Positions 4,291 to 20,302 of a stretch of 24,000 nucleotides of DNA are shown here, piece after piece. Position 1 is the stretch's first letter. Each line of letters starts with the position of its first letter. The stretch comes from Pedobacter sp. PAMC26386. GTDB taxonomy: Bacteria; Bacteroidota; Bacteroidia; Sphingobacteriales; Sphingobacteriaceae. The stretch is from positions 2,295,067-2,319,066 of the forward strand of contig CP060294.1 in the NCBI GenBank assembly GCA_014302835.1. The letters run 5' to 3'. The notes beneath the pieces were generated by a model. It did not search any database and was not told the origin of the DNA. It was given only the letters and a program-made list of their open reading frames with translations. The position numbers and the translations under genes are program-made.

Positions 4291-4593
4291 TTATAAAACT
4301 GTATCCCCCATAACTCCTGTTTTTTGAACCAGCTTATCTTGAATAAGTCCTTTCAAATTATTCTTAAAGTCATCACTAAGGTTTATTCTTTTATCTTTCA
4401 AAAATTTCTGATTCCTCTTCATCATACAGTCAATCAGTAAACTTTGTTCCTGAAAAATGCGGCAAACCGGGCAATCTTTTAAATGAATCAGCAATCTGAT
4501 TTCATCCATCACTGCAATTCCTTCCGTATGCTTTCTCTCTACTAAAAAGATAGCTTTACGACAACAGCAGGTAATTTTTTTCAATGTATTCAT
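4291..4593 (-). CDS. Soluble zinc-finger (ZAS, RsrA-like) anti-sigma factor
   Basis: 100 aa with no hydrophobic TM stretch. The motif H37-LKD-C41-PV-C44 is an exact HxxxCxxC, and a CCC triplet ends at C11. It lies 6 nt downstream of an ECF sigma gene. Confidence 0.65.
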   Translation of the reverse strand: MNTLKKITCCCRKAIFLVERKHTEGIAVMDEIRLLIHLKDCPVCRIFQEQSLLIDCMMKRNQKFLKDKRINLSDDFKNNLKGLIQDKLVQKTGVMGDTVL

Positions 4594-4599
4594 ATGCTT

Positions 4600-5199
4600 T
4601 TATATCCAGTTTGTTTGAAGACAATCTCTAAGATTAAGTTTGGTACGGTGAATGATTACCCAAAAATTAGCATGCGTTATACATAAATTTTCACAAATTG
4701 CATAAGTATCTTCTTCATCCAGATATTTCATAGTAAAGACGGCAGACCATAATGGCGGAAGCTTAGACAGACATCCTCTTAAAATTTCATTAAATTCTTC
4801 ATTAATTAATAGTTCCTCTATATCAGCACTAAAACTTTGCGGAACATGTTCTTCTTTCCATTGTCCGCTTTCTTTTTCAAAAAAATTCTCCTGCTGTTTT
4901 TCAGCTTCATCCATTCTCATTTTTCCGTTCAACCCTGAAGAGTTTTTCCGATAGGTATCAATAATTTTGTTTTTAAGAATAGCAGTAAGCCAGGTAATTT
5001 CCTTACTTCTTCCTTCAAATTTATGAAGACTTTCAAGCGCTGCTAAAAAGGTTTCCTGAACAAGATCTCTTGCCGTTTCATCATCGCTAATTCTGGAAAG
5101 CGTATAACGATAAAGGAAATCTGAATAGTGATCAACCCATAAATGGGGATCGATGACTATCTTCTTTTTTGAGGGCGCCGTTTTTCTATCAATCTGCAT
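4600..5199 (-). CDS. ECF-type RNA polymerase sigma-70 family factor
   Basis: Region 2 is present (ARDLVQETFLAALESLHKFEGRSKEITWLTAILKNKIIDTYRK), as is a region 4 helix-turn-helix (LPPLWSAVFTMKYLDEEDTYAICENLCITHANFWVIIHRTKLNLRDCL). Confidence 0.85.
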   Translation of the reverse strand: MQIDRKTAPSKKKIVIDPHLWVDHYSDFLYRYTLSRISDDETARDLVQETFLAALESLHKFEGRSKEITWLTAILKNKIIDTYRKNSSGLNGKMRMDEAEKQQENFFEKESGQWKEEHVPQSFSADIEELLINEEFNEILRGCLSKLPPLWSAVFTMKYLDEEDTYAICENLCITHANFWVIIHRTKLNLRDCLQTNWI

Positions 5200-5231
5200 A
5201 AGTGATCAGGATGTATATAACTATCCCACTT

Positions 5232-5258
5232 AGTCGTGACACTTCACAGATCCTTACA
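5232..5258 (-). promoter_or_regulatory. Candidate ECF-type promoter of the sigma/anti-sigma/GLPGLI operon (TGTAAGG-N15-CGACT)
   Basis: The minus-sense sequence reads ATTGTAAGG-atctgtgaagtgtca-CGACTAAG and ends about 32 nt upstream of the sigma ATG (5199). The motif and spacing are identical to those of the plus-strand site at 5448-5474. Confidence 0.55.
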
Positions 5259-5447
5259 ATTATCTTACGCGATTTATTAATAATAATAAATTAACCTAGC
5301 ACCTCGTTTAATTATCTAATTAAATCCATAACTCAAAGAAACAAAACCTGGATTCCCTGTTCAGTTCATTCCAGGATCAATTTTCTCAAAACTTTCCAAA
5401 CAAGATTCTTCGCAGATTGATCAGGATCAATGTTTTTTCATTTCTGT

Positions 5448-5474
5448 TGTAAGGTTTGCCAATGAACTGCGACT
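5448..5474 (+). promoter_or_regulatory. Candidate ECF-type promoter of the nine-gene YHS-to-LysE array (TGTAAGG-N15-CGACT)
   Basis: The plus-sense sequence reads GTTGTAAGG-tttgccaatgaactg-CGACTTAA and ends 38 nt upstream of the ATG at 5513. It is the mirror partner of the site at 5232-5258. I found no TAnnTTTG housekeeping box in this spacer. Confidence 0.55.
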
Positions 5475-5512
5475 TAACACTAAAAAACAATCCACTTCAT
5501 CAATTCAAAATC

Positions 5513-5977
5513 ATGAAAAACTTATTTGCAGTTTTAGTATTATCGGTTATTAGTATTTGTAGTGTTTCGGCCCAGACAGCCAATCACAAAAATCAGTTCA
5601 ATGTAGATAAATCAGCCCTGGCAATAGAAGGTTATGACCCTGTAGCCTACTTTACATCAAGCAAGCCCATAAAAGGAAAAAAAGAATTTAACCTGACTGC
5701 AGAAGGAGTTACCTATCAATTTGCCAACGCCCAGAACAAAAATACATTCAAAGCCAATCCGGCAAAATATGAACCTCAATATGGTGGCTGGTGTGCTTAT
5801 GCAATGGGTGCAACAGGAGAAAAAGTAAGTGTTGACCCGGAGACTTACAAAATAATCAATGGGAAATTATTTCTATTCTACAATAGGTTTTTCAACAATA
5901 CGCTGAAAGACTGGAATAAAGACGAGTCCAATCTAAAAATCAACGCCGATAAAAGCTGGGCAAAGTTTAATCCATAA
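5513..5977 (+). CDS. Secreted YHS-domain (seleno)protein-family protein, Cys form, copy 1
   Basis: The signal peptide is MKNLFAVLVLSVISICSVSAQ. Family pattern: GYDPVAYF...KG...F...NP.KYEPQYGGWCAYAM...GKLFLFYN. The ORF track extends to a TTG at 5456, but that extension overlaps the candidate promoter and has no signal peptide. Confidence 0.75.
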   Translation: MKNLFAVLVLSVISICSVSAQTANHKNQFNVDKSALAIEGYDPVAYFTSSKPIKGKKEFNLTAEGVTYQFANAQNKNTFKANPAKYEPQYGGWCAYAMGATGEKVSVDPETYKIINGKLFLFYNRFFNNTLKDWNKDESNLKINADKSWAKFNP

Positions 5978-6010
5978 GCACTTAAATCATCGTCCATAAA
6001 TAAGAAAAAA

Positions 6011-6454
6011 ATGAAAAAATTATTAGTAGTAACTACTTTCCTCCTATTCGCAATTTTTAGTGCACGGGCTCAAAAATCAGAAATATTTGTCACCGGGAAT
6101 AAAGCAATCAGAGGTTATGATCCCATTGCATTTTTCAAAGAATCAAAACCGGTAAAAGGTGATGAAAAACTATCTTATAACTGGAAAGATGCGACCTGGC
6201 TATTTTCCACTCAGCAAAACTTAGATGACTTCAAAACGTCGCCAGAAAAGTATGCTCCACAATATGGTTGTTACTGTGCATATGGCACGGCCGATGGACA
6301 TAAGGCTCCAACCCAAACTGAGACCTGGACTATTGTTGGCGACAAACTCTATTTCAATTATAACAATAAGGTAAAACAGCTTTGGGATAAAAATCAGAAA
6401 GCACTAATTGAAAAGGCCGACCAACAGTGGATAGATATCAAAGAGAAACCCTAA
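6011..6454 (+). CDS. Secreted YHS-domain (seleno)protein-family protein, Cys form, copy 2
   Basis: It has a signal peptide. The sequence IRGYDPIAFF...KG...SPEKYAPQYGCYCAYG...DKLYFNYN marks it as a paralogue of the upstream gene. Confidence 0.75.
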   Translation: MKKLLVVTTFLLFAIFSARAQKSEIFVTGNKAIRGYDPIAFFKESKPVKGDEKLSYNWKDATWLFSTQQNLDDFKTSPEKYAPQYGCYCAYGTADGHKAPTQTETWTIVGDKLYFNYNNKVKQLWDKNQKALIEKADQQWIDIKEKP

Positions 6455-6465
6455 ACTAAATTATC

Positions 6466-7089
6466 TTGGAAATAGAAAAGCAATTAAAGTTCTTGCTGAC
6501 CATAGGATTCATCTTATGGTCAATGGGTATTAAAGCACAGGATACCGCCAAAATATCCATCACCACTAGTGTGGGTTTAGTACATATTACAGGTAAGCTG
6601 GGCAATACATTTAAATCGGCCGTTGCCTTTAATACAGGTTTAGAGCTTCAATTGAAACACAATTGGTTTATACAGGGCGAAATCAGTTTCAATACACTTG
6701 GTTATCATCAGCAAGTCAGGGACGCAGGTTCAACTTATCTTTTCACGAATGCAAACAGCTCTTTATTACAGGTAGGTGGTATAGGCGGAAAGGACTTTAC
6801 CATTCAAAAAGATAAATGGTTTATTGGTCTTTATTTAGGTGCAGGCTATCTCAATATTGGCGAGCCCAGAATTACTGTAGATGTTGCTAACAATACAGCC
6901 AGACAGGATGTGGTAAGAATGAGTAACATTTATGGAAAAGGAGGCAGCAGGATATCTTATAAGACTAAATCTCCATTTTTTCAAACAGTGTATCTGGACG
7001 CATCTTATTTTGCTTCACCCGTTAAACTGCAAGGTGAACACTTAAACGGAATTTCTCTTTTCATAGGGACTAAGTTCAGTCTTAAATAA
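6466..7089 (+). CDS. Small outer-membrane beta-barrel protein (porin-like, family unassigned)
   Basis: The signal peptide ends IKAQ. Alternating hydrophobic beta-strand patterns run through the protein, and the C-terminal strand is ...LFIGTKFSLK. The start is a TTG, because the next in-frame ATG would delete the signal peptide. Confidence 0.55.
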   Translation: MEIEKQLKFLLTIGFILWSMGIKAQDTAKISITTSVGLVHITGKLGNTFKSAVAFNTGLELQLKHNWFIQGEISFNTLGYHQQVRDAGSTYLFTNANSSLLQVGGIGGKDFTIQKDKWFIGLYLGAGYLNIGEPRITVDVANNTARQDVVRMSNIYGKGGSRISYKTKSPFFQTVYLDASYFASPVKLQGEHLNGISLFIGTKFSLK

Positions 7090-7095
7090 TAGAAT

Positions 7096-7764
7096 ATGAA
7101 TTATTTAAAAGCCTGTATCAAAGTATTAATTACAGCTGGTCCAACCAGAGAGCCAATTGATCCGGTACGCTACCTGACCAATCGTTCTTCCGGAAAAATG
7201 GGTTATGCAATTGCCGAAGTGTTTTTGAAAATAGGATTCGAAGTCATCCTGATTTCAGGCCCCGTTGAACTGAGTTTATATCATTCAAGACTTCGCTTAA
7301 TCAAGGTTGGTTCTGCACAGGAGATGTATAATGCAGCACAACAATATTTTGAAGCTACAGAAATTGCAGTATTTACAGCAGCTGTTGCTGATTACCGGCC
7401 AGCAGAAATAGCAGAATACAAACTCCAGAAAAAAGAAGATTCTTTCCAATTGCAAATGGTTAAAAATATAGATATCGCCTTTGAATTTGGGTTGAGAAAA
7501 ACTAAAAACCAAATCGCTATAGGATTTGCATTAGAAACAGATCATGAACTAGACAATGCAGTAAAGAAGATCTGGGCTAAGAATCTTGACCTGGTGATCT
7601 TAAATTCCACACAGGATGAATTTGCAACTTTTGGTTATGACACTAATAAGATTGCTATGATTTACCCGGATGCGTCAATTGTAAATTTCCCATTGAAACC
7701 AAAAATACAGGTTGCTAAAGATATCGTCATGGCAGCCATTAATCTAAAAGCTCAAAAGGTTTAA
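7096..7764 (+). CDS. coaB: Stand-alone CoaB-type phosphopantothenate--cysteine ligase-like protein (DFP C-terminal domain only)
   Basis: [40 protein letters not shown], KLQKK and MVKNIDI align by eye with the E. coli CoaBC ligase half ([49 protein letters not shown]). At 222 aa it has no flavin-dependent decarboxylase (CoaC) half. Confidence 0.8.
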   Translation: [222 protein letters not shown]

Positions 7765-7792
7765 AATTCAACATTGCTTTAATAAAAGAAAG

Positions 7793-8200
7793 ATGACAAT
7801 CAAACAAAAAAATATAACCTACTGGATTTTGAGACTCACCGCAGCATTCATCCTCCTCCAAACGCTATTTTTCAAATTTACAGGGGCAGAAGAATCTGTT
7901 TATATCTTTTCTACTCTTGGGATGGAGCCTTGGGGAAGAATTGGTACAGGAATCGTGGAACTTATAGCCGCTATACTTATCCTCATTCCCAGAACAACTG
8001 CTATTGGTGCAGTTATAGGCATGGGAATGATGAGTGGGGCATTATTATCTCACCTTACCGTACTTGGAATTGTGGTTAAAAATGATTCAGGAGCATTATT
8101 TATTTACGCATTAATCACCTTTATCTGCTGTTTTCTGCTCGCTTATGCTTTCCGTACACAGTTAATTCAGTTATTAAAAAAAGTAAACATCAAAATATGA
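7793..8200 (+). CDS. DoxX-family inner-membrane protein
   Basis: 135 aa with four hydrophobic helices. The N-terminal ILRLTAAFILLQTLFFKFTG and the IGTGIVELIAAILILIPRT pattern are typical of DoxX proteins. Confidence 0.65.
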   Translation: MTIKQKNITYWILRLTAAFILLQTLFFKFTGAEESVYIFSTLGMEPWGRIGTGIVELIAAILILIPRTTAIGAVIGMGMMSGALLSHLTVLGIVVKNDSGALFIYALITFICCFLLAYAFRTQLIQLLKKVNIKI

Positions 8201-8706
8201 CAATGCATTTAAATAAAACGATTTCATCTTTACTTGCACAACTTCAAAATTTGCTGGAAGAACTCTCAGATGAACAATATTGTATGCCAGTAATTGCGTT
8301 GTCCAATGCAACCCTTGGACAGCATACACGGCATATTGCAGAGTTTTACCTGGAGCTTGATCATGGTTACCAGAACGGTATCGTCAATTACGACAACCGA
8401 AAAAGAAATTATAAAATTGAGACTTTCAGAATTTTCACCATTCACCTGCTTCAGGAAATTTCAGCAGGCATGATTAAAGAAAATAAGGAACTCAAGCTTA
8501 TCGCCGACTATGGAACAGCCATAAATGACGAAATCTGTATAGTAGAAACCAATTATTTCAGAGAATTACTCTATAATCTGGAACATACTGTCCATCATAT
8601 GGCACTGATGAGAATTGGTGTGACGGCTGTCTCGGGTATCATATTGCCAGTAGATTTCGGCGTAGCTGCTTCTACTATAAAATTCAGAAAAACATGTGCA
8701 CAGTAA
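8197..8706 (+). CDS. DinB-fold (DinB_2-like) metal-dependent protein
   Basis: A four-helix-bundle-style sequence carries a His triad pattern: GQHTRHIAEF near the N-terminus and LEHTVHHMALM near the C-terminus. The start overlaps the DoxX stop (ATGA). Confidence 0.55.
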   Translation: MTMHLNKTISSLLAQLQNLLEELSDEQYCMPVIALSNATLGQHTRHIAEFYLELDHGYQNGIVNYDNRKRNYKIETFRIFTIHLLQEISAGMIKENKELKLIADYGTAINDEICIVETNYFRELLYNLEHTVHHMALMRIGVTAVSGIILPVDFGVAASTIKFRKTCAQ

Positions 8707-10481
8707 CCTTTATTCCTTCAAATAGTGGAATTCATATCACCTCTAACAGAGATGAACATGCTACACGAAGCCGGGCTATCCGTCCAAAAAAGTATGTAAC
8801 TAATGGATACGAATTGATCTATCCAAAAGATGAGGATGGTGGTGGCAGCTGGATTGCGACCAAAACCAATGGTGACGCTGCGGTCTTGTTAAACGGAGCC
8901 TTTATCAAACATATTCCCGCCCTGTCTTACCGTAAAAGCAGGGGTTTGATCTTTCTTGAAGTAATTCAGGCAAATGAGCCAGCTGGGCATTTTAAGACAA
9001 TCGATCTTGAAAACATTGCCCCTTTTACCCTGGTTCTTTATTCAGGTGGACAGCTACGTACCTTAAGATGGGATGGTCTTCGTAAACATAATCTATTGAT
9101 GGATGAAAGTATACCGCATATCTGGTCTTCCGTTACCCTTTACGAGCAAGAAATAGTAAATGATAGAGAACGCTGGTTTAAAACATGGATTGAATCTGAT
9201 CAGGAATTAAATAAAGATAAAATTCTTCACTTTCATCGCTTTGCTGGAAACGGTGACCCGGAAAATGATCTGATCATAGATAGAAAAAGTAAGCTGTCTA
9301 CAGTAAGTATTACTTCTGTTTTTGTATCCTCTTTCAGTACATGTTTAACTTACCTTGACCTGAAAGCTAATCAGAAATATGTTGTATCACTCAGTTGCAG
9401 GCAGGATAAGATCGTTACAGATGGCCAGTTATACAAGATCGGATGGGCAACAAAACGCTTGTTGATTAAGACTTTCAATTGGGAATACTGGCCTTTTCAA
9501 TTGGTCTATATTCCTATGTATGTATATTGGTTCTGGCTTAGTTTTAAAGCGCGTTCCTTTTTCTTTTTTAGTGCGGCAAATCCCCTGATTGAAAATAGTG
9601 GGTTTGCATTGGAAAGAAAAAGCAAAATCTATGATACGATTCCTAAAGCCTATTATCCGAAAACAACACTTATTGAGCCGGATATAGAAATAGCACAACT
9701 AGAAAAGATGCTGGAAAAAGATGGGTTTAATTTTCCTCTAATTGCAAAACCTGATATTGGAGAAAGGGGTGTAAAGGTAAAAATTTTGCATCATGCAGAG
9801 GATCTTAGAGCATACAAGACAGAAAGTAAAGTAGATTTTCTGATTCAGGATTTTATTGATTATGAACAGGAGGCAGGAATATTCTATTACCGGATTCCCG
9901 GAGAAAAAAGAGGCCATATTTCTGGTATCGTTGGAAAGGAATTTCTGGCAGTTACCGGTAATGGTAGGTCAACTATAATAACGTTACTTCAACAGGAAGA
10001 TCGTTATATTCTGCAATTACCCGTATTAAAAACGCTTTATGGCAATTTTCTCCAAACCATTTTACCTGAAGGTGTCCGCCATATACTAGTTCCTTATGGC
10101 AATCACAGTCGTGGTTCAAAATTTACAGATCTAAGCCATAAAATTAATGAAGAATTAGTAAACGCAATAGATCATATATGCAGCAAAGTTCCTGAGTTCT
10201 ATTTTGGCCGGCTGGACATCAAATTTAAAAACTGGGAAGATCTGTCTAAAGAAAAAAACTTCTCGATCATTGAGTTGAATGGTGCGGGGAGTGAGCCCAC
10301 ACATATCTATGATCCAAAACATTCTATCTTTTTTGCTTGGAAGGAAATCATCAGACATTGGGATTTACTTTTTAAGATCAGCAGAATGAATGCCCGTCGT
10401 AAGGGCTTAAGATTGATGGGAACAACTGAAGGAATGAAAATGCTGAGAGATCATACTGAACATTTAAAACTAATCGCTTAA
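8694..10481 (+). CDS. Fusion protein: N-terminal NRDE/TANGO2-family domain + hydrophobic linker + C-terminal ATP-grasp ligase
   Basis: The N-terminus reads MCTVTF...TSNRDEH...GGGSWIA...GDAAVLLNG, which parallels human TANGO2 (MC...ANRDE...GGTWLG...G..AALTN). The linker is WEYWPFQLVYIPMYVYWFWLSF. ATP-grasp hallmarks are FPLIAKPDIGERGVKVKIL, FLIQDFIDYEQEAGIFYY and IIELNGAGSEPTHIYD (E-x-N metal site). It is a single uninterrupted 595-codon frame. Confidence 0.7.
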   Translation: MCTVTFIPSNSGIHITSNRDEHATRSRAIRPKKYVTNGYELIYPKDEDGGGSWIATKTNGDAAVLLNGAFIKHIPALSYRKSRGLIFLEVIQANEPAGHFKTIDLENIAPFTLVLYSGGQLRTLRWDGLRKHNLLMDESIPHIWSSVTLYEQEIVNDRERWFKTWIESDQELNKDKILHFHRFAGNGDPENDLIIDRKSKLSTVSITSVFVSSFSTCLTYLDLKANQKYVVSLSCRQDKIVTDGQLYKIGWATKRLLIKTFNWEYWPFQLVYIPMYVYWFWLSFKARSFFFFSAANPLIENSGFALERKSKIYDTIPKAYYPKTTLIEPDIEIAQLEKMLEKDGFNFPLIAKPDIGERGVKVKILHHAEDLRAYKTESKVDFLIQDFIDYEQEAGIFYYRIPGEKRGHISGIVGKEFLAVTGNGRSTIITLLQQEDRYILQLPVLKTLYGNFLQTILPEGVRHILVPYGNHSRGSKFTDLSHKINEELVNAIDHICSKVPEFYFGRLDIKFKNWEDLSKEKNFSIIELNGAGSEPTHIYDPKHSIFFAWKEIIRHWDLLFKISRMNARRKGLRLMGTTEGMKMLRDHTEHLKLIA

Positions 10482-10482
10482 G

Positions 10483-11127
10483 ATGCCGGGACATAGTAAG
10501 ATAACATTATATGCATTGGTCATCAGCTTCTTAGGCTCTTTGCCCCTGGGTACATTAAATCTTAGTGTGGCTAATTTTGTATTTAAAGATAATATTCCGG
10601 GGGCAATTGCCTTTGCTATTGCGGCAATAGTTGTAGAGATTGTACTAGTCAGGATAGCTTTGGTTACCGTAAACAGACTGGAAGGTTTGAAGCGCTTTTA
10701 TAAACTGTTTAACATAGTGACCTGTTTAATCCTGATTGTGCTTTCTATGATTAGCCTCAACGCTGCCTACAATAGGTGTAAATTTGAGGCTGGTCTACCC
10801 TTTTCAAACCTGAATCCCTTTCTTTCGGGTTTGTTGCTCAGTGTGATCAATCCACTGCACCTGCCATTCTGGATGGGCTGGACAGCAGTACTGAAGTCTA
10901 AAAATATTTTAGACCATTCCCTGGGGTCTTATAATGTATATGTTGCTGGGATTGGGATAGGTACGTCGCTTGCTTTTCTAACTTATGGTACAATTGGACA
11001 TCTCCTCATTACCAATTTGCTGAACTATCAGATATTGCTGAACTGGCTGGTAGGGATTACGCTGTTACTCACAGCGTTGATACAATTTTATAAAACATTT
11101 TTTACTCCAATAAAAAAACTCATATAA
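10483..11127 (+). CDS. LysE/RhtB-type small-molecule exporter
   Basis: About six hydrophobic helices. The N-terminal FLGSLPLGTLN and the central LSVINPLHLPFW resemble LysE-family motifs. The start lies 1 nt after the stop of the fusion gene. Confidence 0.6.
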   Translation: MPGHSKITLYALVISFLGSLPLGTLNLSVANFVFKDNIPGAIAFAIAAIVVEIVLVRIALVTVNRLEGLKRFYKLFNIVTCLILIVLSMISLNAAYNRCKFEAGLPFSNLNPFLSGLLLSVINPLHLPFWMGWTAVLKSKNILDHSLGSYNVYVAGIGIGTSLAFLTYGTIGHLLITNLLNYQILLNWLVGITLLLTALIQFYKTFFTPIKKLI

Positions 11128-11152
11128 TATTATTTGAGATAAAATAAATCTA

Positions 11153-11197
11153 TTTTTCATCGGCATGCTTTTCGATGAAAAACATGCCGATGAAAAG
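11153..11197. terminator. Long hairpin between convergent genes (likely transcript-end structure for both)
   Basis: TTTTCATCGGCATG (11154-11167) pairs perfectly with CATGCCGATGAAAA (11183-11196). After one C.A mismatch, five further pairs close a 3-nt loop. On the minus strand a U-rich tract (auagauuuauuuuau) follows a few nt after the stem. There is no immediate U-run on the plus strand. Confidence 0.5.
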
Positions 11198-11212
11198 CAA
11201 ATTAACACACTA

Positions 11213-12865
11213 TTACCAACCTGGATTCTGTTTCAAATTCGGATTTAGTGCCAATTCCTGTGTAGGAAGCGGGTTTAAATATAATTTATCATTCCATGTT
11301 CGTGTAATTCCGGGATAAATCAGGATATAGCTATTCCCATCAACCACAATATTATTTACCTGACTAGCGGGATATTGTGCCTTAAGAGCTGCTGTAAGCT
11401 TCATGCCCAAGATGGTTTCCGGATTATTTATCAAAGTACCAGCGTGCCATCTGTGCATATCGTCAAAACGGAAACCCTCAGCACCAAGTTCTATTCTTCT
11501 TTCTCTCCGTATTTCATCAGTGAGTACAGGAAGACCAGGGAAATTTGATTTTGGATCTTTAACCAAGCTGGCCAGAACCATATGTGCCATCCCTACCCGA
11601 TCTCTCAGTTTGTTTATAGTCAGATCTAGTGTGACCTGTGTGCAAGTACCTAATTCTGCTTTGGCTTCAGCCGAGATCAGCAATTGTTCAGCATAACGGA
11701 AAATAAAAAAATCATAAACACTTTGATTTGCATTCCATGCAGCCTGACTGGACGACCGTCCTTTAATTGGCTGATAACCAGTTGAAGTAACCGAAGTCCC
11801 TATCCTTGGTAAGGTGATGAAATCACCATTCAAAAAATCAAATCCTCTGGTAGCTATTTGCTGAGCATAACGCGGATCACGATTAGCCACCTCGTTTTCA
11901 GGCGTATCATCTCCTTTATATAGAGGACTTAATGAAGTGGGTAAACCATCTGTACACAAAAAGGAACGAACAAAATCTTTACTGTAACCATCACTTGATT
12001 CTCCTAATGACCTATCAATATTGTTCATCAATATATTAGTTAAATACCGCATAGGCATTATAACTTCGGGATTACCCTTTAACTCATCCTGAATAAACAA
12101 ATTATAATAATCGGATTGTGGCTTTCCTGTACTGTAAAGATTAAACAGGCCCGACTTTATAATCTGATCGGCAGCGTCAGAAGCAGCTTGCAAAAAGGGA
12201 GTTTCATCTCCAACTCCAAAATACTTCCTGTAAGTCCCCTCCCACAAGCAAATCCTTGCTTTCAATGCCAATGCGCAATATTTGTTTAAACGCCCATCTG
12301 GTGCGCTTACTGGCAGATGATCAACTGCAAAATTCAAATCCTTCAAAACTGAATCCATCACTTGTTTATGAGCCATCCTTGAACCATATAAAACTGTTTT
12401 AGAAGTATCGGTAATATAAGTGTTTATATAAGGTACATCGCCGAAAGTCTTAACCTTCCTCCAAAAATCATTCGCTCTGAAAAACAAGGTCTCCCCAACG
12501 TATATATTTTTTGTATTGTCACTTATATTAGCTCTGGAGTAATTGGCCAGAAAAAAATTACAAGACCTGATGAAACTAAAATCCCAGCCCCCACCTGTAT
12601 TTGGTACTGTTGCTGTACCAGCCAGAAAGGAATTAATTTGCGTATTGGCCTTGTCATCAGAACCATTATCTGCCCTTAAAAAGGATTGAACAGGCAGTTG
12701 AGAATAATATTGATTACAATATAATTGTAAATCACTCTCGTTTTTAAAAAAGTTTTGCGGACTGATATCACTTAAGGGTGCGCGGTTAAGAAAACTGTCC
12801 TTTTTGCAGGAAGCAAAAACTGTAACAGCAAAAATTGTCAGATATATGATAAGTCTATTTTTCAT
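11213..12865 (-). CDS. RagB/SusD-family nutrient-binding outer-membrane lipoprotein
   Basis: The lipoprotein signal is ...VFASCKKD. TPR-like SusD architecture. The C-terminal ...YLNPLPTQELALNPNLKQNPGW is typical of SusD homologues. It lies 34 nt downstream of a SusC-type gene. Confidence 0.9.
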   Translation of the reverse strand: MKNRLIIYLTIFAVTVFASCKKDSFLNRAPLSDISPQNFFKNESDLQLYCNQYYSQLPVQSFLRADNGSDDKANTQINSFLAGTATVPNTGGGWDFSFIRSCNFFLANYSRANISDNTKNIYVGETLFFRANDFWRKVKTFGDVPYINTYITDTSKTVLYGSRMAHKQVMDSVLKDLNFAVDHLPVSAPDGRLNKYCALALKARICLWEGTYRKYFGVGDETPFLQAASDAADQIIKSGLFNLYSTGKPQSDYYNLFIQDELKGNPEVIMPMRYLTNILMNNIDRSLGESSDGYSKDFVRSFLCTDGLPTSLSPLYKGDDTPENEVANRDPRYAQQIATRGFDFLNGDFITLPRIGTSVTSTGYQPIKGRSSSQAAWNANQSVYDFFIFRYAEQLLISAEAKAELGTCTQVTLDLTINKLRDRVGMAHMVLASLVKDPKSNFPGLPVLTDEIRRERRIELGAEGFRFDDMHRWHAGTLINNPETILGMKLTAALKAQYPASQVNNIVVDGNSYILIYPGITRTWNDKLYLNPLPTQELALNPNLKQNPGW

Positions 12866-12899
12866 TTTTCAACAGATTAAAATTTAATAAAAACTAATA

Positions 12900-15800
12900 C
12901 TATAATGTAGCCTGCAAGCCAACAGAAACTGATCTGTTGATAGGATAAGTCCTATAATTCCCGCCAGTGGTGATGATTTCCGGGTCATATCCTTTAAACA
13001 AAGAAGTAATAGTAAATAAATTAGCACCAGTAACATATACTCTTACTTTTTGCATTTTCAGTCTGCTGATCAATTGCTTTGGCAGGGAATAACCTAATGT
13101 TAACTGTTTGATTCTCGCATAAGCTGCATTTTGCAGATACTTAGTCTGTGTCTGTTTATTGCCCTGACCACTAAACCTTGGACGTGCAAAATAAGCAGTT
13201 GGATTCTCAGGAGTCCAATAATCAGTAGTAGATTTATATGGCAAATCATATTCACTGTTGTTAAAAGAATAAAATACATTATCATTTGGTGCATAATCAG
13301 CTTTTAATACACCCTGAACAAAAGCAGCAAAGTCAAAATCTTTATAGGATAGATTCAGGTTAAAACCGAACCTGTAACGTGGAGTGCTATTTCCTATAAT
13401 TTTCTTATCTCCTGGATTAGCCAATGTATTATTCCCATAACCAATCTTCCCATCATGGTTCAAGTCCGCATACTTAACGTCTCCAGCCAGCCATTTATAG
13501 CCTGCCAACGCCGAATTATCCATACTGGCAGCTTCAGCATCAGTTTGATAAAAACCCAGAGTTTGATAGCCCCAGATATTCCCCAGTTTCTCTCCTGGAT
13601 AATGATCGTCTATATTAAATGTAGGATTTAATGCATACTTAGTAATCGTACTAGAGGCATCTGAGACACCCAGGGTTACATTATAAAGTAACTGATTATC
13701 AAATACGCGGTCTCTCCATCCGACGCTAAATTCCCATCCCTTTGTACGCAGACTAGCTTGATTCAACAATGGCGCCCCGGTTCCTAATACTGCCGGCAAT
13801 TTCTGACCGTCCACAAGCATATCTTTTGTATCTGTAATAAAATAATCAAAACTACCACTTAGCTTATTATTTAATAAGGTATAATCAAGTCCAATATTTT
13901 TAGTCTGAACTTTTTCCCAGGTGAGTGTTGTACTAATCAAACCCGGAGTGTTGACCACAATACCGGGTTGGTTATTAAACAAATAACCCACAGTACCAGT
14001 ACCCTGAGTAGCAATATATGGATATTGCGCTCCAGCAGAGATCGCATCCGACGGGGTTTGCTGATTAGGTAACTGTCCATAAGAGGCTCTTATCTTCAAT
14101 TCATTAATCGTGTTTTTAGCACCCTGCATAAAAGATTCTTCGGTAATATTCCATCCTGCAGATACTGAAGGAGAGAATGCATAACGGTGATCTGCCGGAA
14201 ACCTCGATGTACCATCATATCTCCCATTAATCTCCAATAAATATCTTTTATCATAGATGTAATTAAGTCTGAAAAAAGTACCTACCAAAGCGTATTCTGT
14301 TTCTGTACCACCTACCACAGGTTTGGTATCAGTATTTGTTCCAATAGCTGGTAGGTAAGGATCAATCAGGCTTTTAGCCAGAGAGTTACTTAGCTGATAA
14401 TGCTGATATTCTTGATTATAACCCAAAAGTGCCTTGAAATAATGTTTCTTATTAAAGGTATTTTCATAGGTAGTATAGATATTCAAAGCATTATAATTGT
14501 TATTCCTCCTGTTTTCATTTACTTGTGAAGGGTTTGTCCAGGGAAATACACCTAATAAAACACCGTCTACTCCATATTCATTGAATGGAATTACATTTGA
14601 TTTTTGGAACTGCGAAAAGGCATTCCACGTATAATCAGCGGTAACTGTAAGATGATCCACCGGTTTTAAGATCACACGACCTGTTGTCCAGAAATCATTC
14701 TGAGAATTAATATCTCTGCCAGACAGATTAATCACCGCAACCGGGTTAGTATAACTTCCCTGTCCAGAATAATGTCCATCCGGATGATAAACAGGCATAA
14801 GTGGTCTTAAATCACCAGGGATCCAGGCTCCACCCTGATTAATAATCGTATTTGCGGCCTGGTTATTATTTGTATTTGTCATCGACATGTTCAAATTAAA
14901 GGTGATCCATGAAGTAACATCTGAATTGATTTTTAGACTTGGCGTATATCGTTTATAAATCTGGTTAGCTACTTTCTCAAGACCGTCTTGTTTAAAATAA
15001 CCTAAACTGGCTGAGTAGGTAGTCTTTCCTTCCCCACCAGATACGGATAAATTATGCTGTTGCTGAGGCGCCCAGCCAGGATAGAGTACTTTAATCCAGT
15101 CAGTATTTCCTACATACCTGTATAATTTTGGATTGCCAGGATCTGGATAGACGGCTGGATTATTTGCGGGATCTCTAAAAAAAGCATCGGCCATAATAGA
15201 ATCTCTTGCGGTAAAAGGACTGCCAGAAACAGAACCGCCAGTCCGGCTTCCTGTTCGCTGGGCATCATTAAACATTTTAATATACTCCTGCGAATTAAGA
15301 TAAGCAGGCATTATAGTAGGTCTTGAAGTGGTATATGAACCAGAGTAACTGATTTGTGTCACACCCTTTTTACCGGTTTTGGTAGTAATTAAAATTACCC
15401 CATAGGCTGCTCTGCTTCCGTAAATCGCTGAAGAAGCTGCATCTTTTAAAACTGTTACACTGGCTACATCATTCGGATCTATCAAGTTTGGATCACGTTG
15501 TATACCATCTACCAAAACTAGTGGTCTGGAACTTGAATTAGAGCCAATTGTAGTATATCCCCTGATGTTAAATGTAGCACTTGTGCCAGGCTGCCCATTA
15601 TTAACATTTACATTCAAATTGGGAATAAGGCCATTCAAGCCATCCCCAAGGTTCACAAGCGGCCTGCTTTCCAGTTTTTCACTCCCTATGGTTGCAATTG
15701 CACCAGTTAAATTAACTTTCTTCTGTGTGCCATAACCTACTACTACCACTTCACTCAACTTACCTTCATCGGCTTCTAGTCTGACTATCATTTCTATACC

Positions 15801-16385
15801 TGGAGTTACAGATAGCTCTTTAGGTATAAAACCGATAGAGGAAAAGATAAGTATTGCTTCTTTATCAGGAACAGTAATTTTAAATTTACCATTGGCATCT
15901 GCTACAACTACGGTTTTGCTGCCTTTTACTTTCACAGTAACACCAGGTATGGGTTTATTACTATCATCATTCACCTGTCCAATAATCACTATTGGATTAA
16001 TCGTGTTTTTAATTGCAGGAATTATCATCATCTCCTGTATTATAATTGTTTTATCGACAATTTTATAAATCAAGGGCAGGTTCTTAAAACACTCCTTTAA
16101 TGCCTGATCAATGGAGGCATTATTAAGCTGTACACTATTTATGCTTTTGTTTCTGATATCTTTTGAGTCATAAAAAAAAACATATCCAGTCTGTTTATGG
16201 ATCAATTCAAAAACTTTTTTAACAGCTATTTTTCTTTCATTCAGAATGATATTCTGACTATATCCTTCAGCGCTTACCTGTACAAGGGTGATCAGGATTA
16301 ACAGACTAGTTAATTTCATATACAGAAATATTTTTTTGGGTAACCACATTCTATATGCAGCCAAAAAGAAAGCATTTATTTTCAT
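12900..16385 (-). CDS. SusC/RagA-family TonB-dependent transporter with N-terminal STN signalling domain
   Basis: An STN-like segment is present (VFELIHKQTGYVFFYDSKDI...IDQALKECFKNLPLIYKIVDKTIIIQE). A carboxypeptidase-regulatory-like domain follows (GQVNDDSNKPIPGVTVKVKGSK...ADANGKFKI). The SusC signature VVVVGYGTQKKVNLTGA, the plug and a 22-strand barrel length are all present. An alternative start is at Met23 (16319). Confidence 0.9.
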   Translation of the reverse strand: MKINAFFLAAYRMWLPKKIFLYMKLTSLLILITLVQVSAEGYSQNIILNERKIAVKKVFELIHKQTGYVFFYDSKDIRNKSINSVQLNNASIDQALKECFKNLPLIYKIVDKTIIIQEMMIIPAIKNTINPIVIIGQVNDDSNKPIPGVTVKVKGSKTVVVADANGKFKITVPDKEAILIFSSIGFIPKELSVTPGIEMIVRLEADEGKLSEVVVVGYGTQKKVNLTGAIATIGSEKLESRPLVNLGDGLNGLIPNLNVNVNNGQPGTSATFNIRGYTTIGSNSSSRPLVLVDGIQRDPNLIDPNDVASVTVLKDAASSAIYGSRAAYGVILITTKTGKKGVTQISYSGSYTTSRPTIMPAYLNSQEYIKMFNDAQRTGSRTGGSVSGSPFTARDSIMADAFFRDPANNPAVYPDPGNPKLYRYVGNTDWIKVLYPGWAPQQQHNLSVSGGEGKTTYSASLGYFKQDGLEKVANQIYKRYTPSLKINSDVTSWITFNLNMSMTNTNNNQAANTIINQGGAWIPGDLRPLMPVYHPDGHYSGQGSYTNPVAVINLSGRDINSQNDFWTTGRVILKPVDHLTVTADYTWNAFSQFQKSNVIPFNEYGVDGVLLGVFPWTNPSQVNENRRNNNYNALNIYTTYENTFNKKHYFKALLGYNQEYQHYQLSNSLAKSLIDPYLPAIGTNTDTKPVVGGTETEYALVGTFFRLNYIYDKRYLLEINGRYDGTSRFPADHRYAFSPSVSAGWNITEESFMQGAKNTINELKIRASYGQLPNQQTPSDAISAGAQYPYIATQGTGTVGYLFNNQPGIVVNTPGLISTTLTWEKVQTKNIGLDYTLLNNKLSGSFDYFITDTKDMLVDGQKLPAVLGTGAPLLNQASLRTKGWEFSVGWRDRVFDNQLLYNVTLGVSDASSTITKYALNPTFNIDDHYPGEKLGNIWGYQTLGFYQTDAEAASMDNSALAGYKWLAGDVKYADLNHDGKIGYGNNTLANPGDKKIIGNSTPRYRFGFNLNLSYKDFDFAAFVQGVLKADYAPNDNVFYSFNNSEYDLPYKSTTDYWTPENPTAYFARPRFSGQGNKQTQTKYLQNAAYARIKQLTLGYSLPKQLISRLKMQKVRVYVTGANLFTITSLFKGYDPEIITTGGNYRTYPINRSVSVGLQATL

Positions 16386-16413
16386 AGTTTTGCTTGGTAT
16401 TAGGTTAATACTC
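16385..16413 (+). promoter_or_regulatory. Plus-strand TAnnTTTG box (TAGTTTTG) plus conserved block, antisense to and abutting the susC-like start
   Basis: TAGTTTTG at 16385-16392 matches the Bacteroidota -7 consensus TAnnTTTG. The following CTTGGTATTAGGTTAATACTC is conserved with 23563-23590 at the second locus. Confidence 0.35.
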
Positions 16414-16505
16414 GGTTAGGTCTTAATCTTGTTTTTCCGTTTTTTCCGGAAAGGTTAATCCTGATACTTTTGCGCAGGAGTGGTCCAAGACTTCTGCGCT
16501 TTTTC
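16397..16505 (+). ncRNA. Candidate cis-antisense small RNA opposite the susC-like 5-prime leader (DonS-like arrangement)
   Basis: A predicted start lies a few nt after the TAGTTTTG box. The candidate ends at the hairpin GCGCAGGAGT-ggtccaag-ACTTCTGCGC (16472-16499, 10 bp including one G.U), followed by TTTTT on the plus strand only. On the minus strand the G.U becomes a C.A mismatch and the tail is A-rich. No plus-strand protein gene lies here to be terminated. Confidence 0.3.
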
Positions 16506-16592
16506 AGACTATAACCTCGGGGCGGGTTAACTGTGTAGTCTTCTCTTCATTTTTTCCTTTCTTTTAATTAAATGTTTAATTGATGCTTAAAA

Positions 16593-17720
16593 TTATGGCG
16601 TCACAATTATTGTCCTGCCGCTTATCCTGAAATGGATATGTTTAAAGTTTAGAATCTCCTGTAATTGTGTTGCATTGATATTCCTGGGGATTTCTCCGGT
16701 AAATTCTCTAGCCGGTATTTTACCTTCATATTTTACATCTACATCATACCACCTGGAAAGCTGCCTCATCACGGTTTCTATACTCGCATCTTTAAAGTTA
16801 AAAAAACCGTTTTTCCAAGCAATTTCATCTTCTATATCCACTTCTGATTTATGGAAAACACCATTGTTCAGCTGTGCTTGTTCACCTGGTTTAAGAATAG
16901 TATTATTATCTTTTGATAATACCTTTACACTTCCTTTTAAAAGGGTGGTTTTAACTTCTTCTTCATTATCATAAGCATTAATATTAAAATGCGTACCTAA
17001 TACTTCAACCGTCTGTTTTTCCGAAACTACTCGAAAAGGTGTATTTTTATGATGTGCAACTTCAAAATAAGCTTCCCCGCTAATTTCAACACGGCGCTCA
17101 GTCCCGCTAAATGCAACTGGATATTTAATAGAAGAGGCGGCATTCAGCCACACTTTAGTACCATCGGATAAGATCAATTGATAACTACCTCCACGAGGGG
17201 TAGTTACTGTATTATATAATTTTCGCGATGCTTTAGCAAAATCTGCGGAACCAGAGTAAGCAATCTGCCCTTCTGCTGTCTTATCTATAATTTTATCTCC
17301 CTGACTTGCCAGTGTACCATTCTTTGTTCCATTCAATACAATGGTTTGTCCATCATCCAGTGTGAGTACGGCCTTATTTCCGCCGGGTAAAAGATCTTTA
17401 GAAATATTCTTGCGCTGAACTTGTTCGTGTTGTTCTGTTTTTTTGTTAAACAACAAATAGCTGGTGCCTGCTGCGAGGACGAAAATTAATGAGGCTGCTA
17501 TTTTCATAGCTGGCCAAAATCTTCTTTCCTTTCGCTTCTGAATCTGATTGATTAAATCTGTCAGACTCTCTTTTTGCGCATCTTCTATCTTTTGATAAGG
17601 TATTTTGGCTGAAGAATCCTCATAAGTTAAATACCAGGTTTCTACTAAAGTTTTTTCTTCTTCCGTAACCATACCTGTTTGGTATCTATCCAGTAGATTC
17701 TGAACATCTTTCAGTTGCAT
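16593..17720 (-). CDS. FecR-family transmembrane anti-sigma factor / sensor
   Basis: It has an N-terminal cytoplasmic domain, a single TM (IAASLIFVLAAGTSYLLF), a periplasmic FecR domain and a C-terminal WKNGFFNFKDASIETVMRQLSRWYDVDVKY module typical of Bacteroidota FecR proteins. Confidence 0.9.
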   Translation of the reverse strand: MQLKDVQNLLDRYQTGMVTEEEKTLVETWYLTYEDSSAKIPYQKIEDAQKESLTDLINQIQKRKERRFWPAMKIAASLIFVLAAGTSYLLFNKKTEQHEQVQRKNISKDLLPGGNKAVLTLDDGQTIVLNGTKNGTLASQGDKIIDKTAEGQIAYSGSADFAKASRKLYNTVTTPRGGSYQLILSDGTKVWLNAASSIKYPVAFSGTERRVEISGEAYFEVAHHKNTPFRVVSEKQTVEVLGTHFNINAYDNEEEVKTTLLKGSVKVLSKDNNTILKPGEQAQLNNGVFHKSEVDIEDEIAWKNGFFNFKDASIETVMRQLSRWYDVDVKYEGKIPAREFTGEIPRNINATQLQEILNFKHIHFRISGRTIIVTP

Positions 17721-17801
17721 AATAATAGAAGTATGAATGAGTACTTATTACGCTACATAACAACCGATCCGGGATCAGGGAGTAGAAGAAAAATGAAATA
17801 A

Positions 17802-18371: not shown

Positions 18372-18452
18372 AAAAAAATTAGGTTATAATGGTTCAGATT
18401 GATATTTGATTACACTAAATTAAAGCAATAACCTGTAGCATAAATTTTACAT

Positions 18453-18519
18453 TATTGGCCTAATATTAAATGATATTGGCTAATAAAACCTGATCAGATC
18501 AAATTATTATTAGCCAATA
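18453..18519. repeat. Perfect 13-bp inverted repeat plus a third near-copy of the half-site
   Basis: TATTGGCTAATAA (18474-18486) and TTATTAGCCAATA (18507-18519) are exact reverse complements separated by 20 nt that contain the palindrome TGATCA. TATTGGCCTAATA (18453-18465) is a third copy with one extra C. The repeat lies between the susD-like stop (18563) and the sigma start (18371). Confidence 0.6.
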
Positions 18520-18562
18520 CATAAGAGATTACACGATTAGTTACTACACTGACACATAAGGG

Positions 18563-20254: not shown

Positions 20255-20302
20255 TTGAATATGATTGTCTTTTAATGCTGTGTTTATTTTACGGTTAACG
20301 GG

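Follow-up and report, generated by a model that had tools for sequence, protein, structure and literature searches.

The biochemistry of TANGO2, a protein whose gene loss leads to severe childhood disease, is disputed, and it has been viewed as a haem chaperone, as an acyl-CoA or lipid enzyme, and as a cysteine N-terminal-nucleophile (Cys-Ntn) hydrolase. Its known relatives, including the bacterial NRDE/DUF833 proteins CV2077 (3gvz) and Shewanella HtpA, are, like human TANGO2 itself (8sv7, 9bwa), stand-alone and soluble. An N-terminal cysteine amidase and a C-terminal ATP-grasp amide synthetase share one polypeptide in the glutathionylspermidine synthetase/amidase GspSA; its amidase, however, is CHAP papain-like and not Ntn, and it is soluble and unrelated in sequence to the protein described here, an analogy only. 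In the cyanophycin synthetases CphA1 and CphA2 and in GshF, the ATP-grasp module, known as the G domain and the glutathione-synthetase domain, respectively, is accompanied by a Mur-ligase or gamma-glutamylcysteine-ligase partner domain. The hydrolase reading of TANGO2 stems from its crystal structures, and the catalytic residues proposed for the human protein include Asn75, Asn157 and Lys166 (PMC13044924).

In the window, a 24,000-nt stretch of the soil bacterium Pedobacter sp. PAMC26386, a TANGO2-type domain forms one polypeptide with a membrane anchor and an ATP-grasp ligase, in a gene array composed as follows:

4291-4593, minus strand: small anti-sigma factor (zinc motif HxxxCxxC)
4600-5199, minus strand: divergent ECF sigma factor
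5456-5977 and 6011-6454, plus strand: two YHS-domain (seleno)protein paralogues in their Cys forms (NF041384, 137 and 149 bits)
6466-7089, plus strand: putative outer-membrane beta-barrel protein (weak match)
7096-7764, plus strand: CoaB-only paralogue, phosphopantothenate--cysteine ligase-type domain (full-length match to PF04127, E = 2.4e-62)
7793-8200, plus strand: DoxX-family membrane protein (Pfam DoxX_2)
8197-8706, plus strand: putative DinB-superfamily protein u169, 169 aa
8694-10481, plus strand: fusion ORF, 595 aa with a Met-Cys start, comprising an NRDE/TANGO2 domain, a membrane segment and an ATP-grasp ligase
8694-9401, plus strand: NRDE/TANGO2 Cys-Ntn domain, residues 1-236 (Pfam PF05742, Foldseek and invariant columns)
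9402-9479, plus strand: variable linker (residues 237-246, pLDDT <50), then amphipathic helix (residues 241-261)
9480-9545, plus strand: aromatic membrane-partitioning segment WEYWPFQLVYIPMYVYWFWLSF, residues 263-284, with an invariant Pro274
9591-10478, plus strand: ATP-grasp ligase domain, residues ~300-595 (Pfam, fold and invariant residues)
10483-11127, plus strand: LysE-type exporter (Pfam LysE)

The fusion protein and its domains

Neither a frameshift nor an assembly error accounts for the long ORF: the same protein, residue for residue, has been recorded for Pedobacter sp. PAMC26386, and its full-length homologues, each of roughly 595 aa and 50-58% identical to it, number more than 120. 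Relatives are present in at least 590 Bacteroidota species genomes, either as the fusion or as neighbouring split genes. We counted neighbourhoods at 80 species-level genome loci and 80 metagenome loci. The two halves are fused at 22 of the 80 genome loci and are separate but adjacent in most others, and can therefore be regarded as functionally linked. In the split forms, the break falls in the linker/helix region that follows the NRDE domain. Of 55 split junctions at genome loci, 51 keep the reading frame across one intervening stop codon; selenocysteine insertion or programmed read-through was considered at this position and rejected, the stop being TAA in 45 of the 51 in-frame cases. When loci were instead ranked by their ATP-grasp half only, the frame was kept at 13 junctions and lost at 42, which is close to chance, so that the in-frame excess is a tblastn ranking artefact and the split forms are ordinary adjacent genes. 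Three genome loci and four metagenome loci carry the ligase and the DinB-like gene with no NRDE gene alongside, indicating that NRDE is dispensable for the core reaction.

Conservation was assessed in an alignment of 30 full-length homologues of the fusion protein (50-58% identity), in which the segment WEYWPFQLVYIPMYVYWFWLSF and the motifs NRDE (residues 18-21), GGSW (50-53) and LLNG (65-68) are invariant or nearly so, and M1, C2, N18, R19, D20, E21 and N67 do not vary. The N-terminal domain matches PF05742 (TANGO2) over residues 14-179 with E = 1.9e-9 (38.5 bits vs. a cut-off of 22.6). An AlphaFold2 model of the fusion protein (mean pLDDT 85.3) was compared with known structures by Foldseek: its N-terminal half yielded as best matches the human TANGO2 crystal structures 9bwa and 8sv7 (E ~1e-10, target-normalised TM 0.60), followed by 3gvz (TM 0.68), with 2x1d also matched, and the 50 best fold matches on this side comprised TANGO2, CV2077 and isopenicillin-N acyltransferase. 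In a provisional hhalign comparison with human TANGO2, C2, NRDE and N67 sit on C2, N25-E28 and N75; the alignment ends at residue 67, and the equivalents of Asn157 and Lys166 were not placed by sequence. The invariant S145/S146 and R158 are candidates only for the remaining catalytic positions. Overall, the domain shares with human TANGO2 and the bacterial NRDE/DUF833 proteins the PF05742 match, the Met-Cys start, the NRDE and GG(S/T)W motifs, the LxN asparagine and the predicted alpha-beta-beta-alpha fold, although it is only ~16% identical to the human protein.

Assignment of the C-terminal half leans on its predicted fold and conserved motifs, because the match to Pfam PF08443 (RimK) is marginal and partial (21.8 bits vs. 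a cut-off of 21, residues 333-396). A profile search of the PDB gave weak matches to CphA2, GshAB and CphA1, and Foldseek placed this half of the model with cyanophycin synthetases, GshF and Ddl at E values of 1e-9 to 1e-7 (7txv, 7wae, 3ln6 and 7ta5 at ~2e-9, many Ddl structures at ~1e-7). Within the domain, K352, D354, Q385, E393, R506, D508, E527 and N529 are invariant in the 30 homologues; K352 belongs to a KPD motif, and the E-x-N residues, of the nucleotide/Mg-binding type, align as E-L-N with E-I-N of CphA2. The domain is thus predicted to be an ATP-grasp ligase closest to the Ddl/GshF/cyanophycin-synthetase branch. The CphA1/CphA2 G domain and the glutathione-synthetase domain of GshF provide its best profile and fold matches (residues ~330-535) and have in common with it a GDGxSTI-type motif and the E-x-N Mg site, whereas the Pedobacter ligase lacks either partner domain, follows a membrane anchor and is less than 20% identical to them. 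The family is large and distinct, with 1039 representative clusters at E <= 1e-30, and a profile search aimed at remoter ATP-grasp relatives led back to this Bacteroidota system, in its split forms only.

The segment joining the two domains had been described, in a sequence-only reading of this DNA, as strongly hydrophobic and Trp/Tyr-rich. Its aromatic, membrane-partitioning character stands, with Wimley-White values of -17.2 kcal/mol on the octanol scale and -11.7 on the interfacial scale, but hydrophobicity of the aliphatic type does not, the Kyte-Doolittle score being only 0.9. Among the five proteins scored (fusion, DoxX, LysE, CoaB-like and u169), its membrane-partition score was the strongest, above the best DoxX and LysE helices, and the aromatic anchor is kept across the ATP-grasp family, stand-alone forms included. 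When one membrane segment separates two large domains, these normally lie on opposite sides of the membrane, which counts against the topology that we propose for this protein, with both domains cytoplasmic and the anchor monotopic or re-entrant. The same reading had named the two domains from their hallmarks alone, and both names were borne out by the Pfam thresholds, the invariant residues and the structure-prediction comparison; the fusion is likewise genuine.

In sister architectures, LysE or a membrane domain of the DedA/VTT type is the fusion partner of ATP-grasp domains of the same family, and in ABH-VTT-ATP-grasp fusions an alpha/beta-hydrolase (ABH) takes the N-terminal position of NRDE. 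These arrangements show that the hydrolase and exporter modules are exchangeable around the ATP-grasp domain. A DinB-like gene of the u169 type again adjoins the sister fusions (hhalign 99.5-100% for neighbours of ABH-VTT-ATP-grasp and LysE-ATP-grasp). Both domains of the Pedobacter protein are of known kinds; literature searches on TANGO2 with ATP-grasp, on DinB with DoxX and ATP-grasp, and on NRDE/DUF833/COG3332 returned no description of their combination or of the cluster.

Conserved neighbours and the CoaB-like gene

The constant partner of the ATP-grasp gene is the DinB-like gene (78 of 80 loci), followed by those for DoxX (65/80), YHS proteins (61/80) and the LysE-type exporter (40/80), and blind clustering of neighbour ORFs confirms the same conserved set. 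In contrast, the putative beta-barrel gene, found at 1/80 loci, is not conserved with the system. The fusion gene is tightly coupled to its neighbours, given that its start is overlapped by the end of u169, stop codon included, for 13 nt, that the LysE gene begins 1 nt past its stop codon, and that no terminator-like sites were found in the gene array; the DoxX gene likewise overlaps u169 by 4 nt. While u169 itself is below threshold for DinB_2 (E = 0.029) and a PDB sequence search with it gave only noise, 17 of 21 members of its family match this profile (best 7e-6), and a relative scoring 35.2 bits vs. a cut-off of 24.8 aligns to the u169 family with an hhalign probability of 99.5%. Histidines H43, H46, H130, H133 and H134 are invariant in the family. 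The YHS proteins are probably periplasmic, judging from their hydrophobic N-termini. Selenoprotein forms of these neighbours were also considered and rejected: across loci, the motif position carries Cys codons, 91 of them, and never TGA. YceI-like lipid-binding proteins recur near the system. PADLOC defence models gave no match.

The CoaB-like gene ends 930 nt before the fusion ORF, and its PF04127 match substantiates the sequence-only report of a CoaB-type gene upstream in the same array. It shares with the CoaB domain of CoaBC the full-length profile match and a GPTREPIDPVRxxxNxSSGKMG motif, but lacks the CoaC half, and it falls below all NCBIfam equivalog cut-offs (184.9 vs. 219.7 for TIGR00521, 72.9 vs. 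265 for NF005231, 66.7 vs. 217.2 for TIGR02114). The adjacency had been taken as independent support for a pantothenate, cysteine or CoA-type substrate, and this part of the argument fails: CoaB-like genes lie near the system at 3/80 genome loci, all from Mucilaginibacter (L007, L014 and L016), and at 0/80 metagenome loci, so that no recurrent association was found outside that genus. Four other Pedobacter loci of the system do not contain the gene either. In other Bacteroidota, the CoaB-only paralogue belongs to a separate conserved, non-CoA cluster without NRDE or ATP-grasp genes; some clusters seen in that survey include HbpS-like and Rieske/ferric-reductase genes. The CoaB-like gene is a lineage-specific insertion in the Pedobacter cluster, which by our reading takes no part in pantothenate-to-CoA metabolism, although the adjacency kept in the Mucilaginibacter clade may mean that a cysteine ligase serves the system there in an accessory capacity limited to that lineage.

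Candidate functions of the cluster

On balance, and by a narrow preference, we regard the cluster as a two-enzyme, membrane-associated module, in which a hydrolase or acyltransferase and an amide ligase make or edit an exported amide-linked metabolite. The single aromatic anchor would keep the fusion protein on the inner membrane, on its cytoplasmic side. The NRDE/TANGO2 domain of the protein would act as a Cys-Ntn enzyme, with removal of Met1 exposing Cys2, and, as a member of the isopenicillin-N acyltransferase/bile-salt hydrolase/ceramidase branch, may act on a non-peptide amide by cleaving off or transferring its acyl part. The ATP-grasp domain, in the manner of its Ddl/GshF/cyanophycin-synthetase branch, would activate an amino acid or short peptide by phosphorylating its carboxylate, to which an amine is then joined. 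Together with a translationally coupled, putative DinB-like metalloprotein, the two activities could make or edit one small amide-linked metabolite; we infer that both domains act on the same compound and that the product is exported. It would pass through the adjacent LysE-type exporter to the envelope, the presumed site of DoxX and YHS action, and the cluster as a whole has the look of a module for envelope or redox stress. LysE is encoded at only half of the loci, which counts against this explanation. A more specific version, in which aerobic Bacteroidota use the cluster to make and export a hitherto undescribed metabolite, either a low-molecular-weight thiol of peptide type or a conjugate of an N-acyl (lipo-)amino acid, with NRDE performing N-acyl amide hydrolysis or acyl transfer, is put forward only tentatively and is in itself unlikely. 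If true, it would supply the first defined enzymatic reaction of any TANGO2-family protein and a template for the human substrate.

The same two activities could instead oppose each other, NRDE hydrolysing the amide formed by ATP-grasp and thereby setting the steady-state level of a conjugate. This synthetase/amidase pairing would parallel GspSA in domain order, with MprF and its aminoacyl-lipid hydrolase as a second precedent for opposed activities, and a hydrolase that can be swapped for an alpha/beta-hydrolase, or is sometimes missing, fits turnover and not an essential biosynthetic step; however, the two domains need not act on the same bond, and strict fusion or adjacency in most lineages suits a pathway step equally, so we consider it a doubtful alternative that still deserves some weight. 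Rather improbable, in our estimate, is a lipid-directed system, in which the ligase would add an amino acid to the carboxylate of an N-acyl-amino-acid lipid or modify a head group, NRDE would serve as N-acyl amidase or acyltransferase, and LysE or DedA would move the lipid. Its appeal lies in the aromatic, interfacial anchor, the DedA/VTT fusions (some members of this family being linked to lipid translocation), the recurring YceI-like proteins, the lipophilic N-acyl amides on which structural relatives of NRDE act, and the glycine and serine-glycine lipids made by Bacteroidota. A resemblance may be seen to MprF with an aminoacyl-lipid hydrolase, where a membrane synthase, a translocating domain and a paired hydrolase recall the ABH-VTT-ATP-grasp and LysE-ATP-grasp fusions, but MprF uses aminoacyl-tRNA and has another fold, and a lipid substrate is only a possibility for the Pedobacter system. 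Fatty-acid derivatives have also been proposed as substrates of human TANGO2, in keeping with a lipid role (PMC13044924). Nevertheless, no lipid-biosynthesis gene recurs in the cluster, LysE members (PF01810) are amino-acid exporters, the nearest ATP-grasp relatives take soluble substrates, and a search of the aminolipid literature tied no ATP-grasp enzyme to glycine or serine-glycine lipids.

Joint work of the fusion and the CoaB paralogue on a CoA-type compound, or on pantothenate, phosphopantothenate or cysteine, would agree with the position of that gene in the same same-strand array, with the three Mucilaginibacter genomes in which the arrangement recurs, and with several Mucilaginibacter CoaB-like and NRDE proteins that seemingly lie on a common contig; isopenicillin-N acyltransferase, a structural relative of NRDE, also employs acyl-CoA. 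The rarity of the adjacency, its absence from the other Pedobacter loci, the separate cluster of the paralogue, and the identity of the constant partners (DinB-like, DoxX, YHS and LysE) make this quite improbable. A glutamine amidotransferase of class-II type, in which the Cys-Ntn domain would free ammonia and ATP-grasp would amidate an acyl-phosphate, would explain the order of an N-terminal Cys-Ntn domain and a C-terminal synthetase, as in PurF, GlmS and AsnB. It is very unlikely, as none of the top 50 fold matches is an amidotransferase and replacement by an alpha/beta-hydrolase indicates that the domain hydrolyses a substrate rather than supplying ammonia. Least probable of all is a non-catalytic NRDE module that binds or traffics haem while tethered to the ligase. 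HtpA and TANGO2 proteins have been reported to bind haem (PMC10470608), and HbpS-like and Rieske/ferric-reductase genes occur in some neighbouring clusters, yet the proposed catalytic set C2/N/R/D/N is invariant, NRDE is exchangeable with an alpha/beta-hydrolase, haem-biosynthesis and cytochrome-maturation genes were not found in the cluster, and haem binding was found to be nonspecific in the crystal study of human TANGO2 (PMC13044924).

Hundreds of species pair a TANGO2-family domain with an ATP-dependent amide ligase, either within one fusion protein or as neighbouring genes. The ligase link, the invariance of the proposed catalytic residues and the alpha/beta-hydrolase swap argue that the TANGO2 family is enzymatic and acts on amide or ester bonds, while the tempting connection of TANGO2 to pantothenate or CoA through CoaB adjacency is removed as unsupported. 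Relevance to the human protein is limited by the low sequence identity, by the dispensability of NRDE in some lineages, and by the fact that the sequence names no substrate. The expectation that this locus would offer an experimentally tractable handle on the family is upheld: a real, widely conserved fusion with a small defined gene set constitutes a genetically tractable bacterial system in which TANGO2-family substrates may be sought.

A sigma-70 promoter scan yielded sites not above the shuffled-sequence level. Of the 80 loci, 17-19 have the divergent ECF sigma factor within 7 kb of the system and 15 have a zf-HC2 partner.

The fused protein and its gene array

The fusion ORF, already annotated as 'NRDE family protein', opens with Met-Cys, has no upstream in-frame start, and encodes 595 aa. 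Its product matches in full a protein deposited for Pedobacter sp. PAMC26386, the strain of this window. It belongs to eight tightly packed same-strand genes that extend from a YHS gene (5456) to LysE (11127).

Genes of the array and of its surroundings in the window
4291-4593, minus strand: small anti-sigma factor, 100 aa (HLKDCPVC, an HxxxCxxC zinc motif)
4600-5199, minus strand: ECF sigma factor, divergent from the array
5456-5977, plus strand: YHS protein (NCBIfam 'YHS domain-containing (seleno)protein')
6011-6454, plus strand: YHS protein (NCBIfam 'YHS domain-containing (seleno)protein')
6466-7089, plus strand: OMP-like protein (weak match)
7096-7764, plus strand: CoaB-like protein (PF04127, full length)
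7793-8200, plus strand: DoxX
8197-8706, plus strand: u169, a DinB-like protein of 169 aa, without annotation
8694-10481, plus strand: fusion ORF (TANGO2 PF05742 and RimK ATP-grasp)
10483-11127, plus strand: LysE
16593-17720, minus strand: FecR-like anti-sigma factor with the first SusD/receptor pair (Pfam)
17802-18371, minus strand: ECF sigma factor with the first SusD/receptor pair (Pfam)
18563-20254, minus strand: SusD (Pfam)

The u169 and fusion genes share 13 nt (aaaacATGTGCACAGTAA), a single nucleotide separates the fusion-gene TAA from the LysE start, and no terminator-like sites were found across 5100-11400. In nearly all of the 80 genome loci (L001-L080) u169 ends in Cys-Ala-Gln-stop, as at the window junction 8694-8706, a consequence of its final codons running into the ATG-TGC-ACA (Met-Cys-Thr) that opens the NRDE gene; both proteins are constrained by this overlap. 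The YHS motif residue is Cys in all fetched loci (62 TGT, 29 TGC), and TGA occurs at this codon in none of them. Downstream, the minus strand at 11213-23557 carries two SusD/large outer-membrane receptor gene pairs, of which the other SusD and both receptors were assigned by reading the sequence alone; together they form a polysaccharide-utilisation-type locus of the ordinary sort, which converges on the array but is unrelated to it.

Placement of the N-terminal part in the NRDE/TANGO2 family, proposed in the sequence-only reading, was borne out. The Pfam TANGO2 family matches residues 14-179 with 38.5 bits (cut-off 22.6), and an alignment of 30 full-length homologues (50-58% identity) leaves M1, C2, N18, R19, D20, E21, G51, W53, L65, L66, N67 and G68 invariant. 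The AlphaFold2 model (mean pLDDT 85.3, below 50 only at residues 148-150 and 237-246) has two well-defined domains connected by two helices, and its top Foldseek matches in PDB are human TANGO2 structures 9bwa and 8sv7 (E ~1e-10), followed at E ~2e-9 by GshF and cyanophycin synthetases 1 and 2; below these are the bacterial NRDE-family member CV2077 (3gvz), numerous D-Ala-D-Ala ligases, and isopenicillin-N acyltransferase (2x1d). Alignment of the N-terminal profile with a hand-entered human TANGO2 sequence by hhalign equates C2 with C2, NRDE with N25-E28, and N67 with N75, residues that the crystal-structure paper proposes as catalytic for a Cys-Ntn hydrolase (PMC13044924). Equivalents of human Asn157 and Lys166 were not located in the NRDE domain, which is only remotely similar to the human protein (~16% identity).

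The C-terminal part was likewise confirmed as ATP-grasp by Pfam RimK (residues 333-396, 21.8 bits against a cut-off of 21), by the Foldseek fold matches, and by a separate PDB-sequence profile search, in which it weakly matched CphA2, GshAB and CphA1 with the E-x-N motif aligned; ATP-grasp matches in NCBIfam were weak. Its invariant residues are K352, D354, Q385, E393, R506, D508, E527 and N529. Ligases of the Ddl/GshF/CphA branch convert an amino-acid or peptide carboxylate to an acyl-phosphate, to which an amine is then added.

The joining segment, described earlier as strongly hydrophobic and Trp/Tyr-rich, is indeed aromatic, but its hydrophobicity depends on the scale. Kyte-Doolittle gives only 0.9, because Trp, Tyr and Phe make up 11 of its 22 positions. 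Residues 266-284 reach -17.2 kcal/mol by Wimley-White octanol (interfacial score, -11.7), where the top-scoring DoxX and LysE helices give -14.9 and -12.6. Pro274 is invariant within this conserved segment, stand-alone ATP-grasp proteins also begin with it, and the fusion protein has no second segment of this type. No signal peptide precedes the NRDE domain, whose initial Met has to be removed, and the ligase depends on ATP; we infer from this a cytoplasmic location for both domains, with the segment as a monotopic or re-entrant anchor.

Fused and split forms and the conserved core

Scanning one genome per species yielded at least 590 loci of the system, and those fetched all belong to Bacteroidota (Sphingobacteriales, Chitinophagales, Cytophagales and Flavobacteriales). 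Record CALRLC020000002.1 (L030), labelled Brevundimonas vancanneytii, holds a typical Chitinophagaceae-type split cluster and is probably a mislabelled or mis-binned MAG. A continuous fused ORF is present in 22 of the 80 genome loci (Pedobacter, Mucilaginibacter, Chitinophaga, Puia, Dyadobacter and others), most of the remainder have two neighbouring genes (Flavobacterium, Ferruginibacter, Sediminibacterium), and in three Cytophagales loci the ligase stands without an NRDE partner. Independent gene calls give the split form as TANGO2 (236-242 aa) followed by ATP-grasp (347-356 aa). The fusion thus acts like a Rosetta stone, revealing a link that is also kept when the genes are unfused.

Split junctions in the genome set are mostly in frame across one stop (51/55; for example L022, 10726/10730; L015-L073). 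Selenocysteine at the junction is ruled out, the stop being TAA in 45 of the 51. The excess is a tblastn ranking artefact, since the genome set was ranked with a full-length query; the 80 metagenome loci (L081-L160), ranked by the ligase half only, had in-frame junctions in 13 cases and out-of-frame ones in 42. One MAG (L025, 7198-8250) has, besides the NRDE-linked copy, an extra divergent membrane ATP-grasp gene (37% identity) upstream of DoxX.

Among the 80 genome loci, u169 lies no more than 7 kb from the ligase in 78 cases, DoxX in 65, YHS proteins in 61, LysE in 40, ECF sigma in 17, and a CoaB-like gene in three, all Mucilaginibacter. This ranking was unchanged when neighbouring ORFs were clustered blind, which added DM13 (24 loci), a Crp-like regulator (21), SDR (20), a zf-HC2 anti-sigma factor (15) and YceI (12). 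An ECF sigma and HxxxCxxC anti-sigma pair accompanies the system in about 15-19 of the 80 loci. From its sequence, u169 is a probable member of the DinB superfamily: DinB_2 is matched by 17 of 21 family members (best E=7e-6), and H43, H46, H130, H133 and H134 are invariant.

Searched exhaustively, residues 246-595 matched 2744 representative clusters, 1039 of them at E<=1e-30. The majority are stand-alone proteins of 340-365 aa, anchor included. Others are fused N-terminally to a LysE translocator, to a DedA/VTT membrane domain, or to an alpha/beta-hydrolase followed by VTT, or C-terminally to a YqcI/YcgG domain or MORN repeats (proteins P0301, P0274, P0377, P0384, P0363, P0314, P0360, P0382, P0355 and P0277; loci L167 and L168). 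The alpha/beta-hydrolase-VTT-ATP-grasp gene (L167) neighbours a DoxX-guanylate-cyclase fusion and a DinB_2 protein aligning with the u169 family (99.5% probability), and a u169-family protein (100% probability) is directly upstream of the LysE-ATP-grasp gene. The conserved core is therefore the DinB-like protein plus the membrane ATP-grasp; its hydrolase is exchangeable (NRDE or alpha/beta-hydrolase, sometimes absent), as is its transporter-like membrane module (LysE or DedA/VTT).

Proposed function

The NRDE structural relatives, TANGO2 and isopenicillin-N acyltransferase together with bile-salt hydrolase, acid ceramidase and NAAA (PMC13044924), act on N-acyl amides, cleaving off the acyl moiety or transferring it. 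In the best-supported reading, the NRDE and ligase domains would form a membrane-tethered hydrolase/acyltransferase and amide-ligase pair, which may act with the putative DinB-like metalloprotein on one small metabolite that would be passed on to an exporter. The accompanying ECF sigma and zinc anti-sigma factors, DoxX, DM13, YceI and Cys-containing YHS proteins suggest an envelope or redox function. DinB-fold enzymes are frequently thiol transferases, so that a peptide-type thiol is one candidate product, an N-acyl amino-acid lipid being another.

Rival readings of the same domains are an opposing synthetase/amidase pair, a glutamine amidotransferase, and, for the NRDE domain, a haem chaperone. 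A CoA model had drawn on the adjacent CoaB-like gene, taken as support for a pantothenate, cysteine or CoA-type substrate. The neighbour is of CoaB type, as its full-length PF04127 match attests, but the argument fails: across the family, association with the ligase does not recur beyond the three Mucilaginibacter genome loci, being found in none of the 80 metagenome loci, many on short contigs, and the paralogue has its own cluster elsewhere.

Literature searches found no description of the TANGO2-ATP-grasp architecture or its cluster; the two domains are of known kinds. With its value limited by the distance from human TANGO2, the dispensability of the NRDE module and the loss of the CoA link, the fusion offers a tractable bacterial system in which a TANGO2-family domain is linked to the chemistry of amide bonds.

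A separate cluster of the CoaB paralogue

The CoaB-like protein, while matching PF04127, falls under all NCBIfam equivalog cut-offs, lacks the CoaC half, and belongs to a populous Bacteroidota family of CoaB-only proteins of ~230 aa. In two unrelated contig families (L161, 1813-7583; L162, 222-7403; L163) such a paralogue lies in a cluster of YHS, HbpS-like, SGL/arylesterase-like, DM13, SDR, a 223-aa PRK/uridine-kinase-family P-loop kinase, CoaB-like and a 231-aa unknown, with a Rieske/ferric-reductase protein and an S8 peptidase on the opposite strand; neither contig family has NRDE or ATP-grasp genes in this cluster. The YHS, DM13 and SDR genes are common to it and the NRDE/ATP-grasp cluster, which may explain why the two adjoin in this Pedobacter and in Mucilaginibacter. 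Type I pantothenate kinase belongs to the PRK/uridine-kinase family, and the pairing of such a kinase with a cysteine-ligase paralogue is suggestive of an uncharacterised side pathway resembling that of pantothenate.
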